The notes under the pieces are model-generated. The model worked only from the letters and a program-made list of their open reading frames with translations, did not search any database and was not told the DNA's origin. From positions 12,988 to 76,987 of the forward strand of contig JAFRQM010000025.1 of the NCBI GenBank assembly GCA_017428625.1: a DNA stretch of 64,000 nucleotides. The letters are read 5' to 3'. This document shows, piece by piece, positions 54,533-59,534 of this stretch. Source of the stretch: Clostridia bacterium (lineage in GTDB: Bacteria; Bacillota; Clostridia; Oscillospirales; Acutalibacteraceae). How positions within the stretch are numbered: position 1 is the stretch's first letter; each line of letters starts with the position of its first letter. Made by a program: the position numbers and the translations under genes.

Positions 54533-55237
54533 TTACGCCTTTTCCATTTTATATCCGTAGCCGAAAACGGAAACAATGTATCTCGGCCGGGCGGGATATA
54601 TTTCGATTTTTTCTCTGAGATGTCTTATGTGAACGAGAACGGTGTTTTCCGCTCCGAGCGGGTCGCACTGCCAGACCTGTTTGTAGATTTCTTTAAGGGA
54701 GAACACCGTGCCGGCGTTTTCGGCAAGGAATTTAAGAATGGAATACTCGGTGGGCGTAAGGTTCACGGGTCTGCCGTCAACCGAAACCCTCTTTTTGTCG
54801 TCATCTATTACTATTGCGCCGTTTCGCAGAACATTCTCATCTTCCGGCTGAACGGAGCCGCCGTCTGTTCTACGGGCGCGGCGCAGCTGATATTCAACTC
54901 TTGCCGCAACCTCGATTTTGTTGAACGGCTTAGTGATGTAGTCATCAACGCCGAGACGGAACGCCATACGCTTGTCTTCCGCCTCGCTTTTCGCGGTTAA
55001 AAGAATAACGGGAACATCCGAAGTTTTGCGGATTTCGCAAAGCGCCTCAACGCCGTCCATCTCAGGCATCATAACATCCATAAGAATAAGGTCGATTTTG
55101 TTTTCGGCAAGTTTTTCGAGTGCCTGCCTGCCGTTGAACGCCTCAATTATATTGTATTCCCTATTGTCGGCGAGCAGATAAATTTTTAAAGCCCTGACTA
55201 TATCCTCTTCATCGTCGCATATCAGAATGTTATACAT
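54533..55237 (-). CDS. OmpR-family response regulator
   Basis: ILICDD, MDVMMP, LTAK, KPF, VHIRHLREKIE. Confidence 0.93.
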   Translation of the reverse strand: MYNILICDDEEDIVRALKIYLLADNREYNIIEAFNGRQALEKLAENKIDLILMDVMMPEMDGVEALCEIRKTSDVPVILLTAKSEAEDKRMAFRLGVDDYITKPFNKIEVAARVEYQLRRARRTDGGSVQPEDENVLRNGAIVIDDDKKRVSVDGRPVNLTPTEYSILKFLAENAGTVFSLKEIYKQVWQCDPLGAENTVLVHIRHLREKIEIYPARPRYIVSVFGYGYKMEKA

Positions 55238-55512: not shown

Positions 55513-55926
55513 TCAGTTATTTTCGAGCATTGTAACCGCCTTGCGGATGGCTTCGCGTTCTTTATCGTTTTCTGCCTCGTTCATCATTTCTTCAAGGCGC
55601 GATTTAACCTCTGCTCCGTCGCGGCTGTATCTTCTCGCATATCTGCCCATACTGTCTCTGCGGTATGAGTTGCCGTTGCTGTAATTGTCGCGTGAGTAAC
55701 CACCTTCACGGGAATAGCCGCCGTTACGGGAGTAATTATCTCTTGAATAATCACCGTTCATTGAGTAACCGCCTTCACTTTCCATAATACGGTCAATATT
55801 CTTGATTGTATGCACAATCTTATCTATTGAGTCAAGCATTCCGATTGAAAACTGGTTACCCTCTACGACATCATCAAGCTCATAGCAAAGCATATCGCGG
55901 ATTTTTTCAAGTGTTTTTTCGCTCAT
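55513..55926 (-). CDS. Prophage cassette protein with Tyr-Ser-Arg/Gly repeats
   Basis: GGAGG RBS; helical N- and C-termini flanking GYS/YSR repeats. Confidence 0.8.
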   Translation of the reverse strand: MSEKTLEKIRDMLCYELDDVVEGNQFSIGMLDSIDKIVHTIKNIDRIMESEGGYSMNGDYSRDNYSRNGGYSREGGYSRDNYSNGNSYRRDSMGRYARRYSRDGAEVKSRLEEMMNEAENDKEREAIRKAVTMLENN

Positions 55927-55940
55927 TGCGTTTCCTCCTT

Positions 55941-56375
55941 TCAAGCGACTCGCTCAATTATAATATTCGCGTTCTGAACATCAATCGGCTGTTCGGAATT
56001 GTTCTCGACGGCTATCGTATAACAACAACCTCTCGGCACTGTCACAAATATTCCGTCATAGACATTCCAAAAGTCACCGACCGCCGCAGGTGTAACAATT
56101 GAGGAACTTGTCGGGATAGGTTCGCCGTCGATAGCGAGAGCGAGGGAAATCGGCTCAACCGTTCCGCCCTCCGCAATCGCTATATTTGCCCCGAAACAAA
56201 CCTTATATCGGGCAAACTGCGAACAGCAATTATTCACGATGCCCCTTAAAGTTATAACACCTGCTCCTTCACGGTGAATGACATAGCCTCTGTTACAAGG
56301 AACTGCCGTTTCTGTGAAAAGCACATTGTTTCCTGCCGTAACCGTCTGCACGGCATTTGCTGTATATTCGGGCAT
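55941..56375 (-). CDS. Prophage cassette protein, BclA C-terminal/C1q-TNF-like beta sandwich
   Basis: All-beta pattern QTV.AG.NVLF...ISLALAIDG...NANIIIERVA; 6 Cys. Confidence 0.6.
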   Translation of the reverse strand: MPEYTANAVQTVTAGNNVLFTETAVPCNRGYVIHREGAGVITLRGIVNNCCSQFARYKVCFGANIAIAEGGTVEPISLALAIDGEPIPTSSSIVTPAAVGDFWNVYDGIFVTVPRGCCYTIAVENNSEQPIDVQNANIIIERVA

Positions 56376-56387
56376 AACTACCTCCTA

Positions 56388-57113
56388 TCAACCGCAAGTG
56401 CCACAACCGCCACAACCGCTATTGCAGCAGTTAGGGTTCTGCACTACATAGGCAGGAACGGGAGTCGGATTGAGAATTGCGGTCTGTGCATTAAGGGCAG
56501 ACTGAATAAAGCCGTTCTGTGCCGTCTGCGACTGTGCGAATTTGAGGTTTGTGTTCTGCGCAAGCAATTCAGCGTTGCGGTCTTTGAGGGCGTCAATCTC
56601 CTGCTGGCAAAGTTTGTCAAGAATTGACTGATTGCCTGCGGTGATAGCGGTGATAATATCACGGACGCCGTCATTGAGGGCACTCCTGTCGGCACAATTC
56701 TCGGTTGCAACTGTGTATTTCAGGTCGGCTATTGCCGCTCTGTTCTCACAGCAACAGTTCTGTTGTGCCATTGATATGCCGTTGAGAACCTGCATAAGGT
56801 TCGCCTGTGTGTTTGCTCTGCCGAGTTCCGCATTTGCGAAACCGCTTGTAATTGCTCCGTTAATGCCGTCAAGTTTTGAAACAACAGCGGCATTATCAAA
56901 GCCCCTCTGCATATCTGCCTGTGTTACTGCGGATGTTGTGTAGGGTGTCGCTCCGCCGCCGTCATAACCGCCGAAGCCGCCCCAACCTCTGCCCCACATA
57001 AAGAGGAACAGAACGATTATCCACCACGCACCATTTCCGCCGAAGCCGTCATTGTTATTGCCGGTTACCGCCGCAAAATCAGCAGGGGTCATTTCAGATG
57101 TTGTAAGTGACAT
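56388..57113 (-). CDS. Prophage cassette protein: leader-like N-terminus, Gly/Trp TM segment, coiled coil, Cys-rich tail
   Basis: GAAAGG RBS; GAWWIIVLFLFMWGRGWGG; QQNCCCEN; PNCCNSGCGGCGTCG. Confidence 0.82.
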   Translation of the reverse strand: MSLTTSEMTPADFAAVTGNNNDGFGGNGAWWIIVLFLFMWGRGWGGFGGYDGGGATPYTTSAVTQADMQRGFDNAAVVSKLDGINGAITSGFANAELGRANTQANLMQVLNGISMAQQNCCCENRAAIADLKYTVATENCADRSALNDGVRDIITAITAGNQSILDKLCQQEIDALKDRNAELLAQNTNLKFAQSQTAQNGFIQSALNAQTAILNPTPVPAYVVQNPNCCNSGCGGCGTCG

Positions 57114-57157
57114 AATTTGATTTCCTTTCGTTTGATCTATTTCAATTTGCAAATTGA

Positions 57158-57361
57158 CTATTTCATACAGTTCATAAACTGTCTTGCAAGCCCTTGCAGT
57201 TGATTAAACTGTGCTTGCGACATTTGTCCGGTTCTCAACAGCTCCTCAACTTTTGATTTCGGGTCGCCTCTGAACATAGACCGAAACTCATTAAAAGCTG
57301 ACATCATCTGCGAAAACTGATTGTTTTGACCGCCTAAAAGTTGAAATAAAGGATTACTCAT
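57158..57361 (-). CDS. Prophage cassette small Q/M/N-rich helical protein
   Basis: 67 aa; start overlaps the upstream stop codon. Confidence 0.75.
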   Translation of the reverse strand: MSNPLFQLLGGQNNQFSQMMSAFNEFRSMFRGDPKSKVEELLRTGQMSQAQFNQLQGLARQFMNCMK

Positions 57362-57722
57362 CTTTCATCGCCTCTTTCTTGCCTTTTTTTGCCGTAATTT
57401 CGGCAATTTTCGCGTTAAATTCCTCACGGGTAATAAAATTATCGGTGTTTATGGAAACCGCCGCATTTGCACTGTCAGGGGCGTTTTTTAGTTCCTCGTA
57501 GGTAAACACCCTTAACGGCAACGGCATTCCGCTTATATCTGCGGATTTTATGTAGAATTTTGACTCCTCCGAGTCCATAAGCAGAACACTTTTGCCGGGG
57601 TTTACAAAAAATGATTTTGCTCCACTTTCGCCCTGCACCCATACAATGCCGTTATCGGATTGCGGTGTCGCCTGAGCCGGCTGTTGAACATAAGTTTGAT
57701 AGGGATAATTGTTATACATCAT
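57354..57722 (-). CDS. Prophage cassette protein with Y/Q/P-rich N-terminus
   Basis: GGAGG RBS; YNNYPYQTYVQQP, WVQGESGAKSF, FYIKS.D..GMP, C-terminal ITREEF helix. Confidence 0.8.
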   Translation of the reverse strand: MMYNNYPYQTYVQQPAQATPQSDNGIVWVQGESGAKSFFVNPGKSVLLMDSEESKFYIKSADISGMPLPLRVFTYEELKNAPDSANAAVSINTDNFITREEFNAKIAEITAKKGKKEAMKDE

Positions 57723-58095
57723 CTTTTTTCCTCCAAAAATATATAGGTATCTCGCTTGTTGAGTCCCAAGTGTCATATACATTGCCGTTTACTACCGCTA
57801 CGGCGTGTGAAGATAATGCCAAAACATAAGTTCCTTTTGGGTAATCTTTACAGAAATCCGCTACCGTATAACAGTTCGGGCAGGAGTTCGGCACAATTTC
57901 TCTTTCAAATCCTTTACTCTGTAAATAGGCACCCCAAACCGAATTTGCGGAAGGCATATCGCAGAGTTCAAGCCCTTTTAAACACACTCCCATATATGTT
58001 TTGTCCCAAGTCTCGCCGGTCGCTTTCGAGATTGCTCTCACAACGCAATCCCCGACATTTCGCTTTTTTGGGTTTAAGTTCAGGTAGATAAACAT
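57712..58095 (-). CDS. Prophage cassette small papain-fold cysteine peptidase (putative)
   Basis: GAGGTG RBS; GDCVVRAI (Cys), HAVAV (His), YDTWDS (Asp). Confidence 0.6.
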   Translation of the reverse strand: MFIYLNLNPKKRNVGDCVVRAISKATGETWDKTYMGVCLKGLELCDMPSANSVWGAYLQSKGFEREIVPNSCPNCYTVADFCKDYPKGTYVLALSSHAVAVVNGNVYDTWDSTSEIPIYFWRKKDDV

Positions 58096-58178
58096 TTTGC
58101 ACCTCTTTGGGGACAGCCCATTCGCAGTCATAAGCTTGTTGATAATTCATTTTTTCACCTCTGTGTATAATTTTAGGC

Positions 58179-58250
58179 AAAAAAAGACCTCCCTGCGAGG
58201 TCACAGAGAGGACATTGTCAGGACAAAAAAAAGACAGGCAAAGCCCGTCT
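58179..58250 (-). promoter_or_regulatory. Two hairpin/T-run elements interleaved with four 11-bp-phased repeats
   Basis: GGTCA 58199, GGACA 58210, GGACA 58221, AGACA 58232; hairpins 58186-58202 and 58232-58250, each followed by a T run on the minus strand. Confidence 0.6.
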
Positions 58251-58451
58251 TTAACCTATGTGTCTTATTAAATTTTGCATTTGTTTGTCAACTATTCTCC
58301 GTATTTGTCGAGCCGACATATCAAACTCCTCCGCTAACGGCTCATAACAAATACCGTCAAGAACTCTGCGTTTGAGTATTGTGCGGTCTCTTTCGCTGAA
58401 TACCCATTCGTCAATTAAGTGTTCCCACTCGGAACGACTTAAACCTTTCAT
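58251..58451 (-). CDS. Small helix-turn-helix protein (sigma region-4-like)
   Basis: RDRTILKRR..DG..YE.LAEEFDMS.RQIRRIV. Confidence 0.75.
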   Translation of the reverse strand: MKGLSRSEWEHLIDEWVFSERDRTILKRRVLDGICYEPLAEEFDMSARQIRRIVDKQMQNLIRHIG

Positions 58452-58468: not shown

Positions 58469-58648
58469 TTATCTCCCAAATATATCTAAAACATTGCGGG
58501 TTATTAATACTGTCTCATCTGTGCAGCATTTAATCATTTCAGAAAATTCCGTGTTAATCACAAAAGCAAGGTCGCTGTGCACATAATTACTCACGCCGTC
58601 AATGATTGCGTTCGCAAAGGTTTTAAGCGCCTCTATAAAATCAGCCAT
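58469..58648 (-). CDS. Small hypothetical prophage protein
   Basis: AAAGGTGG RBS before MADFIEAL; fills the gap between lysin and HTH genes. Confidence 0.5.
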   Translation of the reverse strand: MADFIEALKTFANAIIDGVSNYVHSDLAFVINTEFSEMIKCCTDETVLITRNVLDIFGR

Positions 58649-58660
58649 AATATCCACCTT

Positions 58661-59269
58661 TCAATCAAGATATTTTGCGAAACACCATTTGTTTTCGCCT
58701 ATCCGTGCCCAGTTGCCTTTGTATTCAAGCGGCTTAACAAGCGTGCCTTTCGGCAGCTCATCAACAACAGGGTGGTTTGTGCCTGCGCCGCTCCGCACAT
58801 TAAGATTTGCCGTTGTGCATTTCAGGAGCGGACGGATAACACCGAGCACGCCTTTATAATTGTGCTTTATTTCGGCGCAGTAATACTTACCGCCCCAGTT
58901 TTGGTCGAGACTGTAAAAAGTTGAGCGGTTGCCCTTGCCGAGCGCAATGGCAGTGTGACCCGCAACGCCTGTAACGCCGTCATAAGTTCCCCATTCGACA
59001 ATATCACCTTTTTGTGGAACAAAATCGGGCGTATTCTTAATCTTGATGAATTTACCCTTTAATTGCGGGTAATCATCAAAGTTATACCACAAACCTTTTG
59101 CGTAACCGTGAGGGTTTTTGTTAGTAGTAAAAGAAAAGTTTTTTATGCCGTAGCATTTTTCGAGATAAAATTTAATCTCATCCACGCACTGGTAAGGCTG
59201 AGACGGCACACCGTCATAATCGAGCTTCTTGCCGTTTGCCCATTTTAGAAAGTCAGATTTTGTCATCAT
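58661..59269 (-). CDS. Endolysin: CHAP amidase/peptidase plus SH3b cell-wall binding domain
   Basis: YQCVD (Cys), GHTAIA (His), LDQNWG; LNVRSGAGT...GNWARIG. Confidence 0.9.
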   Translation of the reverse strand: MMTKSDFLKWANGKKLDYDGVPSQPYQCVDEIKFYLEKCYGIKNFSFTTNKNPHGYAKGLWYNFDDYPQLKGKFIKIKNTPDFVPQKGDIVEWGTYDGVTGVAGHTAIALGKGNRSTFYSLDQNWGGKYYCAEIKHNYKGVLGVIRPLLKCTTANLNVRSGAGTNHPVVDELPKGTLVKPLEYKGNWARIGENKWCFAKYLD

Positions 59270-59534
59270 CGGTACCGCCCTCCGAATAGGTAAAATAGCC
59301 GTCTTTATCTTTAACAATGGTAATTATATGCTTTGCCGCCTCCGCTGTTAAATCAACCGCTTTTGCGTCAATCACGCCCTCAATGATAATATATGTCACT
59401 GCCGGGAGCACTGCGCTTATGACGGCGCAGATTACGCCGATTTTACCGCCGAGAGCCGAAAGGCTAACCGCTACGCCTCCGATAGCGGAAAGAACAGCAA
59501 TTATAAATTTTCTGCTTTTAAGCTTCTTAACCAT
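59253..59534 (-). CDS. Holin-like protein
   Basis: KLKSRKFII N-terminus, two TM helices, directly upstream of the endolysin. Confidence 0.7.
   Translation of the reverse strand: MVKKLKSRKFIIAVLSAIGGVAVSLSALGGKIGVICAVISAVLPAVTYIIIEGVIDAKAVDLTAEAAKHIITIVKDKDGYFTYSEGGTDDDKI

Follow-up and report, generated by a model that had tools for sequence, protein, structure and literature searches.

The DNA analysed here is a stretch of 64 kb (the window, to which all coordinates refer), on the minus strand of which a tail-fibre gene is followed by two holin-like genes, a CHAP+SH3 endolysin gene (58661-59317), a 62-aa ORF, the gene of a 66-aa HTH protein and a cassette of six genes (Table 1). The gap between the HTH gene and the cassette is 100 nt, and the control interval was taken as 58151-58253. 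The cassette genes matched only PHROG families of unknown function, and because a host-like two-component system starts at 55237, the cassette is the last module of the phage. No terminator was predicted between the endolysin and HTH genes in the window; thus, the HTH gene is probably the last gene of the lysis unit. A promoter-like sequence, TTAATA-17-TATATT (58479-58507, minus strand), was also seen within the last part of the 62-aa ORF, a short way before the RBS of the HTH gene, and could be a source of some HTH expression that is independent of the lysis unit.

Table 1. Features of the HTH gene, the control interval and the cassette, with their positions in the window.
Feature	Position	Strand	Remarks
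66-aa sigma region 4-like HTH gene	58251..58451	-	recognition helix S46-K56 (SARQIRRIVDK)
Terminator T1, AAAGACGGGC-TTT-GCCTGTCTTT + T run	58225..58252	-	from scan and RNA fold; overlaps HTH stop codon
Word W1, TGTCTT	58231..58236	-	in 3' arm of T1; register of the family words
Word W2, TGTCCT	58220..58225	-	register of the family words
Word W3, TGTCCT	58209..58214	-	begins 5' arm of T2; register of the family words
Word W4, TGACCT	58198..58203	-	at 5' arm/loop junction of T2; last T is first base of the -35-like hexamer
Terminator T2, CCTCTCTGTG-ACCT-CGCAGGGAGG + TCTTTTTTT	58179..58211	-	from scan and RNA fold; embedded in the promoter
Predicted weak promoter, TCGCAG (58198-58193)-17-TAAAAT (58175-58170)	58170..58198	-	position and geometry of the family promoter
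Two near-duplicate RBS/start signals	58093..58162	-	AGAGGTG...ATG at 58150 and at 58095
Six-gene cassette (phrog_3754, 21718, 22984, 16490, 20016 and a Tyr/Ser/Arg-rich protein)	55513..58131	-	

An earlier note on this DNA had described four RGWCA pentamers on the plus strand, starting at 58199, 58210, 58221 and 58232, and had given their phasing as exactly 11 nt. Both the positions and the phasing proved correct, the corresponding minus-strand words starting at 58236, 58225, 58214 and 58203. The four-repeat RGWCA pattern had a single match in the window and none in 100 shuffles. On the coding (minus) strand, the pentamers widened to 6-mers (W1-W4), with 22 of 24 letters common to the four words. 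For comparison, the best array of four 6-mers was sought, at any offset and at periods of 8-14, in 3000 dinucleotide-preserving shuffles of the 103-nt interval; a score of 22 was reached by only 1 of the 3000 (P about 3e-4, allowing any word, offset and period). The three-word pattern did not occur a second time in the 2.63-Mb genome, and the word array revealed no further targets of the HTH protein in the genome from which the window comes.

The array begins 15 nt past the HTH stop codon and is interleaved with two intrinsic-terminator hairpins, T1 (drawn at 58252-58230) and T2 (drawn at 58211-58188), which were the two sites found in a terminator scan, each with a G+C-rich stem, a short loop and, on the coding strand, a T run at the 3' side. 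RNA folding of the interval gave -34.4 kcal/mol (z = -4.95), with both hairpins forming. The outer repeats do serve as hairpin arms, as had been claimed, W1 in the 3' arm of T1 and W4 at the junction between the 5' arm and the loop of T2. A GACCTC/GAGGTC hairpin proposed at the same time is a subset of the longer T2. A known riboswitch or RNA motif was ruled out by an Rfam search, which gave no matches in the interval at E ≤ 1. The placement of two of the words in hairpin arms would suit plain tandem terminators of the late operon, in which the repeats are a by-product or else the sites of a host OmpR/PhoB-type regulator. We regard this explanation as extremely improbable, given that a chance array of this quality arose in so few shuffles and that W2, together with the matching upstream words of relatives, falls outside any stem.

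In keeping with the earlier note, which had seen no good sigma A promoter in the interval, a scan for TTGACA-/TATAAT-like hexamers 16-18 bp apart, with a criterion of 9 of 12 consensus letters, gave none. The predicted cassette promoter, TCGCAG-17-TAAAAT, agrees with the consensus at 8 of 12 letters and is not picked up by the generic scan; it was recognised by homology with the promoters of related loci. Both its -35 and its -10 are weak, and it has no TG extension. The loop and 3' arm of T2 hold the -35, and the 17-nt spacer holds the T run of T2. Further downstream, the initiation signals AGAGGTGAAAAAATG and AGAGGTGCAAAATG were found 55 nt apart on the minus strand of the window. The ATG at 58150 opens a 60-aa out-of-frame ORF and occupies the position of the papain-like start codon in relatives, in which the first cassette gene starts about 30 nt past the -10, and the ATG at 58095 opens the papain-like phrog_3754 gene. 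The paired start signals look as if a short part of the initiation region had been duplicated. At this place, some relatives and the cultured Butyrivibrio virus Ceridwen have a real additional ORF of about 55 aa.

The 66-aa protein matched the Pfam families Sigma70_r4 (20.9 bits, cut-off 24.1) and Mor (20 bits), in both cases below the cut-off. A profile built from 61 homologues matched region 4 of SigF and SigE in the PDB. The AF2 model (pLDDT 95.5) contained helices at residues 6-16, 20-31, 36-42 and 47-62, and the top Foldseek matches of this model were region 4 of SigD, SigF and Thermus sigma A (TM 0.69-0.76, rmsd 1.4-4.0 A); many phage Sigma70_r4 and DUF1492 proteins could also be superposed (TM about 0.8). 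According to the model, the protein is a free-standing sigma region 4 fold, its whole length being that domain. Sigma regions 2 and 3, which core binding and -10 recognition require, are absent, as the 66 residues are wholly taken up by region 4, and a protein without regions 1-3 cannot act as a sigma factor by itself.

Viral contigs (80 loci), genomes (16) and metagenomes (80) yielded homologues of the HTH protein with 50-74% identity, about 170 loci in all. No relative above 74% identity was found in any of these three collections, and no homologue was present in 60 related genomes. The papain-like first cassette gene was found downstream of the HTH gene in 56 of the 80 viral loci, and the remaining cassette genes mostly followed in the same order where the viral contig extended far enough. 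The HTH gene therefore heads a seven-gene module.

The 110 nt past the HTH stop codon were then compared after reduction to 123 non-redundant sequences. Self-matches of 4-mers at a lag of 11 nt numbered 198, compared to 62.5 expected (z = 11.5); lags 22 and 33 were mildly raised and lags 10 and 12 were near expectation (z = 0.3 and 2.0), so that only lag 11 was prominent. Thus, the repeats and their phasing are conserved at homologous cassettes, a point on which the earlier note had staked its proposal beforehand. The loci carried 2-4 in-register words behind the HTH gene, strictly phased at 11 nt. A terminator-like hairpin was present at 103 of the 123 loci, and 19 had two hairpins, as in the window.

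The register of the words was obtained by anchoring on the -35-like hexamer, which allowed 52 non-redundant sequences to be aligned without gaps. The consensus reads W1, an A-rich spacer, W2 (ttgcAC), gaAA and W3 (GCAC, where the stem starts), followed by the loop TTCAT (W4), TGTCA, the 3' arm, TTTTTTTT, TGc, nAaAAT and the RBS, and each word starts at (-35 start) - 4 - 11k. Adjacent in-register words were 53% identical at period 11, compared to 22-29% at periods of 9, 10, 12 and 13. The window matches the family base for base (GGCACTCTGATGACATCGTCAGGGTGCTTTTTT in the relative L044, TGTCCTCTCTGTGACCTCGCAGGGAGGTCTTTTTTT in the window). Ten stem positions were paired in 87% of cells among the 52 relatives, compared to 40-48% when the partner column was shifted by 1-3, and compensatory changes or several pair types were seen at all ten; this retention of pairing through varied pair types indicates that the hairpin is selected as a structure.

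The promoter is conserved in the same frame. Where the promoter could be scored clearly (65 loci), the family -35, T(T/C)G(T/C)CA, lies at the junction of the loop and the 3' arm and the -10 is nAnAAT; the spacer, which is mostly the T run of the terminator, is 17 nt long at 55 of these loci, and the -10 is TG-extended at 42 of them. Promoters of relatives at this position reach TTGTCA-17-TAAAAT and TTGCCA-18-TGT-TATAAT, and such near-consensus sequences suggest that some of them might be active with no activator present. A poor -35 (TCG... or TCC...) and the lack of a TG extension are seen at many loci, among them the window. A terminator embedded in a promoter is a compact insulation device that would be useful to know in the annotation of phage genomes.

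The full design is also present in the cultured virus Ceridwen (MN882553.2, 22048-22500), in which the order of the module is the same. There, TGCAC occurs twice, the first copy overlapping the last codons of the HTH gene; after the second copy come a hairpin whose loop is TTCATTG, a T run and a -10. In Ceridwen, every gene of the module carries the annotation hypothetical, and outside the array its genome gave only one further two-word match, probably due to chance. Ceridwen has been observed in the lytic cycle only (PMC7372960), which argues for expression of the module in lytic growth.

The words differ among loci yet recur within each locus. In the family register, the words of the window are GTCTT/GTCCT/GTCCT/GACCT, and those of four relatives are TGCAC/TGCGC/TTCAT (L034), GATAC/GATAC/GGCAC/GATAT (L027), GTTAC/GTTAC/GGTAC (L079) and GACCC/GACAC/GACCC/GACAT (L001). 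Excess mutual information was calculated between every protein column and every word base in 73 unique pairs of protein and array. For word base 1, the top column was residue 52 (0.58 bit, z = 11.4; next column 0.33), and for word base 3 it was residue 48, both of which are on the second helix of the HTH (S46-K56). Asn52 went with words that begin with T (86 of 110 words) and Arg52 with words that begin with G (72 of 89). At bases 2-3, Arg48 was associated with GC or TC, Ala/Val48 with AT, and Ser48 mostly with AC or AA. The window, with R48, R52 and G-T-C words, obeys both rules, and its unusual residues R51 and D55 go with an unusual CT at bases 4-5. The co-variation of repeat and protein that the earlier note had called for was therefore found among the homologues, with recognition-helix columns as the best predictors of the word bases.

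Since gene and site are adjacent, such an association might reflect linkage by descent; this worry is countered by the helix columns exceeding all other columns of the same protein in predicting the words. A tree was also built from the non-helix HTH columns and the papain-like protein, and on the best version of this poorly supported tree 9 of 9 branch-disjoint Asn/Arg pairs were concordant (p = 0.004), as were 7 of 8 pairs for residue 48; an independent-pairs test confined to well-supported branches retained 1-2 pairs only and had no power. The pairings of Arg with G and of Ala/Val with T would fit base contacts in the major groove.

Some loci have extra genes between the HTH gene and the cassette, in gaps of 340-3400 nt; at these loci, the array is found directly upstream of the cassette, together with the hairpin and the promoter, and the HTH gene is followed by a plain terminator. 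A further 41 loci (L185-L225) were picked via a cassette gene rather than via the HTH gene. About half of these cassette contigs, several of which are longer than 100 kb, had no HTH homologue within 7 kb; in these, the cassette either shares a transcript with other genes or is preceded by an unrelated leader. The HTH-less cassettes showed no lag-11 excess, the 14 upstream regions that were read contained no array, and lag-11 matches averaged 0.56 at HTH-less and 2.17 at HTH-bearing loci in a small sample (18 and 12 loci, respectively; p = 0.03-0.1). What precedes the HTH-less cassettes is a tRNA, a plain terminator or a nearly adjoining gene.

These comparisons also bear on a host factor as the reader of the repeats. 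The host two-component system lies 1 kb away, and pho boxes, too, are marked by 11-bp direct repeats beside a -10. Against a host regulator, the words change with the helix of the phage HTH protein, which a host factor does not explain, and the array is missing where the HTH gene is missing, which speaks equally against mere tandem terminators. The proposal that the 66-aa protein itself reads the array, made in the earlier note, is now supported by the conservation of the phasing, the co-variation of helix and words, the linkage of array and promoter, and the absence of the array from HTH-less loci. On these comparisons of sequence, the four words are very likely the binding sites of the 66-aa protein.

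Reading could in principle take place on RNA. The earlier note had named relief of termination as an alternative to activation, and a protein that binds the words in the nascent transcript, as in the RAT/LicT and HutP systems, would block T2 and let transcripts read through into the cassette. The words do extend into the 5' arm of a terminator and are transcribed together with the regulator gene. We nevertheless consider antitermination highly unlikely, for several reasons: the -35, 17-nt spacer and -10 are conserved in a fixed register with the words; where the HTH gene and the promoter lie apart, it is at the promoter that the array is found; a period of 11 nt corresponds to one turn of duplex DNA; the modelled fold is that of a reader of duplex DNA; the pairing of Ala/Val with T suggests contact with the thymine methyl group; and most of the array in the window comes after T1, which would stay unrelieved.

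The closest known arrangement is that of the Ltr activators of Gram-positive phages, which include RinA, ArpU, LtrA (Sigma70_r4), LtrB (DUF1492) and LtrC (Quiles-Puchalt et al. 2013, PMC3753634). In these systems, the activator gene is directly followed by 2-4 short direct repeats, in an intergenic region that also contains the terminator of the activator gene and the promoter of terS, mutation of the repeats abolishes activation, and every activator is specific for its own repeats (PMC3753634). The module described here likewise combines a small phage protein, predicted to bind DNA and to have a sigma-4-fold domain, with direct repeats distal to its own gene and with an intergenic region that holds both the regulator's terminator and the target promoter. 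It differs in place and target, as Ltr genes are located upstream of terS, after the replication and before the packaging module, and turn on terS together with the entire late operon (packaging, morphogenesis and lysis), whereas the 66-aa gene lies behind the holin genes, the endolysin gene and a small ORF and would serve an accessory cassette, in Ceridwen as in the window. It also differs in size, since Ltr proteins have about 100-140 aa (134 aa in LtrA of phage 37) with an N-terminal extension and the protein studied here is the bare domain of 66 aa. A direct family tie to LtrA of phage 37 found no significant support in the sequences (hhalign probability 5%, E = 0.0076). We found no description of strict 11-bp phasing or of a promoter-embedded terminator for Ltr systems. 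Past the ltrA stop codon of Staphylococcus phage 37 (L184, 1625-1832), short repeats and a hairpin with a T run abutting TAAAAT were observed, and this downstream sequence suggests that the terminator-in-promoter arrangement may be more general than the 66-aa HTH family.

In the mechanism that we propose, T1 and T2 would halt transcripts that come from the lysis/HTH unit and, as the two terminators would thereby insulate the cassette, the latter would be transcribed only from its own promoter. Several copies of the 66-aa protein would sit head-to-tail on one face of the duplex DNA, on the four TG(T/A)C(C/T)T words, at predicted sites about -72, -61, -50 and -39 as counted from the expected start; the -39 site abuts the weak -35. 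The array so occupied would recruit or stabilise host RNA polymerase at TCGCAG-17-TAAAAT. Because the HTH gene is the last of the lysis unit, we propose that the cassette would be expressed in a delayed, very late burst. Binding to DNA on one face is suggested by the duplex-reading sigma-4 fold, the period of one turn, the pairings of residue and base, and the fixed register with the promoter, and we infer that the protein physically binds the array, that binding is cooperative and that the sign of regulation is positive.

Of the two mechanisms in the earlier note, activation of the promoter is thus the one that we favour, and relief of termination is disfavoured by the conserved -35/17/-10 and by the sigma-4 fold. 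That the 66-aa protein binds the array and activates the cassette promoter is, on the sequences compared here, moderately likely. The opposite sign of regulation is unlikely in our judgement: occupancy of W3 and W4 would then block sigma A region 4 at the -35, and a cassette that is on by default (for example, as a moron in a lysogen) would be switched off once the late/lysis unit makes the HTH protein. W4 overlaps the -35 hexamer by one base, so occlusion of sigma A region 4 is possible; moreover, the core promoters of several relatives are strong and their -10 is TG-extended, the cassette lies at the prophage edge beside host genes, which is a typical place for a moron, and the cassettes of other phages work without the HTH protein. 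Activation is favoured over repression, as all sites are upstream of or abut the -35 and none covers the -10 or the start, and as the -35 is poor and the TG extension absent at many loci, including the window. It is further favoured by the terminators, which would leave the cassette dependent on its promoter, by the presence of the module in Ceridwen, a phage seen in the lytic cycle only, and by the Ltr systems, in which the same layout of gene, repeats, terminator and promoter is activating by experiment. In addition, switching the cassette off right before lysis would have no obvious use.

The fold allows a more specific form of activation. Compared to sigma-70 region 4, the 66-aa protein has the same four-helix fold, with residues 48 and 52 on the helix that corresponds, in the profile alignment, to the one that recognises the -35, and many family words look like -35 hexamers (TTGCAC); it differs in that it would read arrays of 2-4 sites and not one hexamer. 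The protein could accordingly be imagined as a detachable sigma region 4 that docks on the beta-flap in place of, or beside, region 4 of sigma A, with W4 as a surrogate -35, and to this version we give only a small chance. The upstream copies may then act as a loading array, with residues 48 and 52 setting the specificity. If true, it would amount to the appropriation of sigma by one protein, by which the host holoenzyme is re-targeted to a private class of promoters.

Activation from phased repeats next to a -35 has further parallels. The pho boxes read by PhoB and PhoP, members of the OmpR family, are 11-bp direct repeats occupied head-to-tail on one face of the DNA; the unit nearest the promoter adjoins the -35 or takes its place, and activation takes place via sigma region 4. 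PhoB and PhoP are winged-helix, receiver-regulated host proteins, whereas the protein here is a phage-encoded, sigma-4-like four-helix domain without a receiver (on the model), and the words co-vary with the phage protein. The Mor and C proteins of Mu and CII of lambda resemble it as small phage HTH proteins, known as activators, with sites just upstream of or around the -35 of weak promoters of the middle or late class, and CII reads TTGC-N6-TTGC direct repeats that flank the -35. They differ in that Mor and C are dimers on inverted repeats and CII is a tetramer on repeats spaced at 10 bp, and none of them is known to have the sigma-4 fold modelled here or a terminator in its promoter. The pho boxes of PhoB/PhoP, lambda CII and Mu Mor are functional analogues only.

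If the proposed mechanism holds, the Ltr logic of regulator, repeats, terminator and promoter would extend beyond the terS switch and down to a minimal sigma-4 domain of 66 residues. The array also offers a testable handle on the timing and mode of expression of a six-gene cassette of unknown function that is widespread among the phages of rumen and gut, and Ceridwen and its host, B. fibrisolvens DSM 3071, are a cultured pair with the same design. The natural series of helices and words (Arg52 with G, Asn52 with T, Arg48 with C, and Ala/Val48 with T) would amount to a ready-made recognition code, which could serve studies of DNA reading by sigma-4-type domains and the design of orthogonal small regulators.

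The 130 nt upstream of the HTH start codon were also inspected (L001-L176; e.g. L011 3900-4000, L064 and L080). The 62-aa ORF of the window (58469-58657) is unrelated to the ORF found at this place in relatives, most of which have a tiny, very basic ORF, MAKxTVTKxRRRK..., before the HTH gene, its stop codon often overlapping the HTH start codon. Many of these tiny basic ORFs end in a CxxC...HGTG zinc-ribbon-like motif, and the gene that precedes them ends in ...NYIGNDGDITNG.
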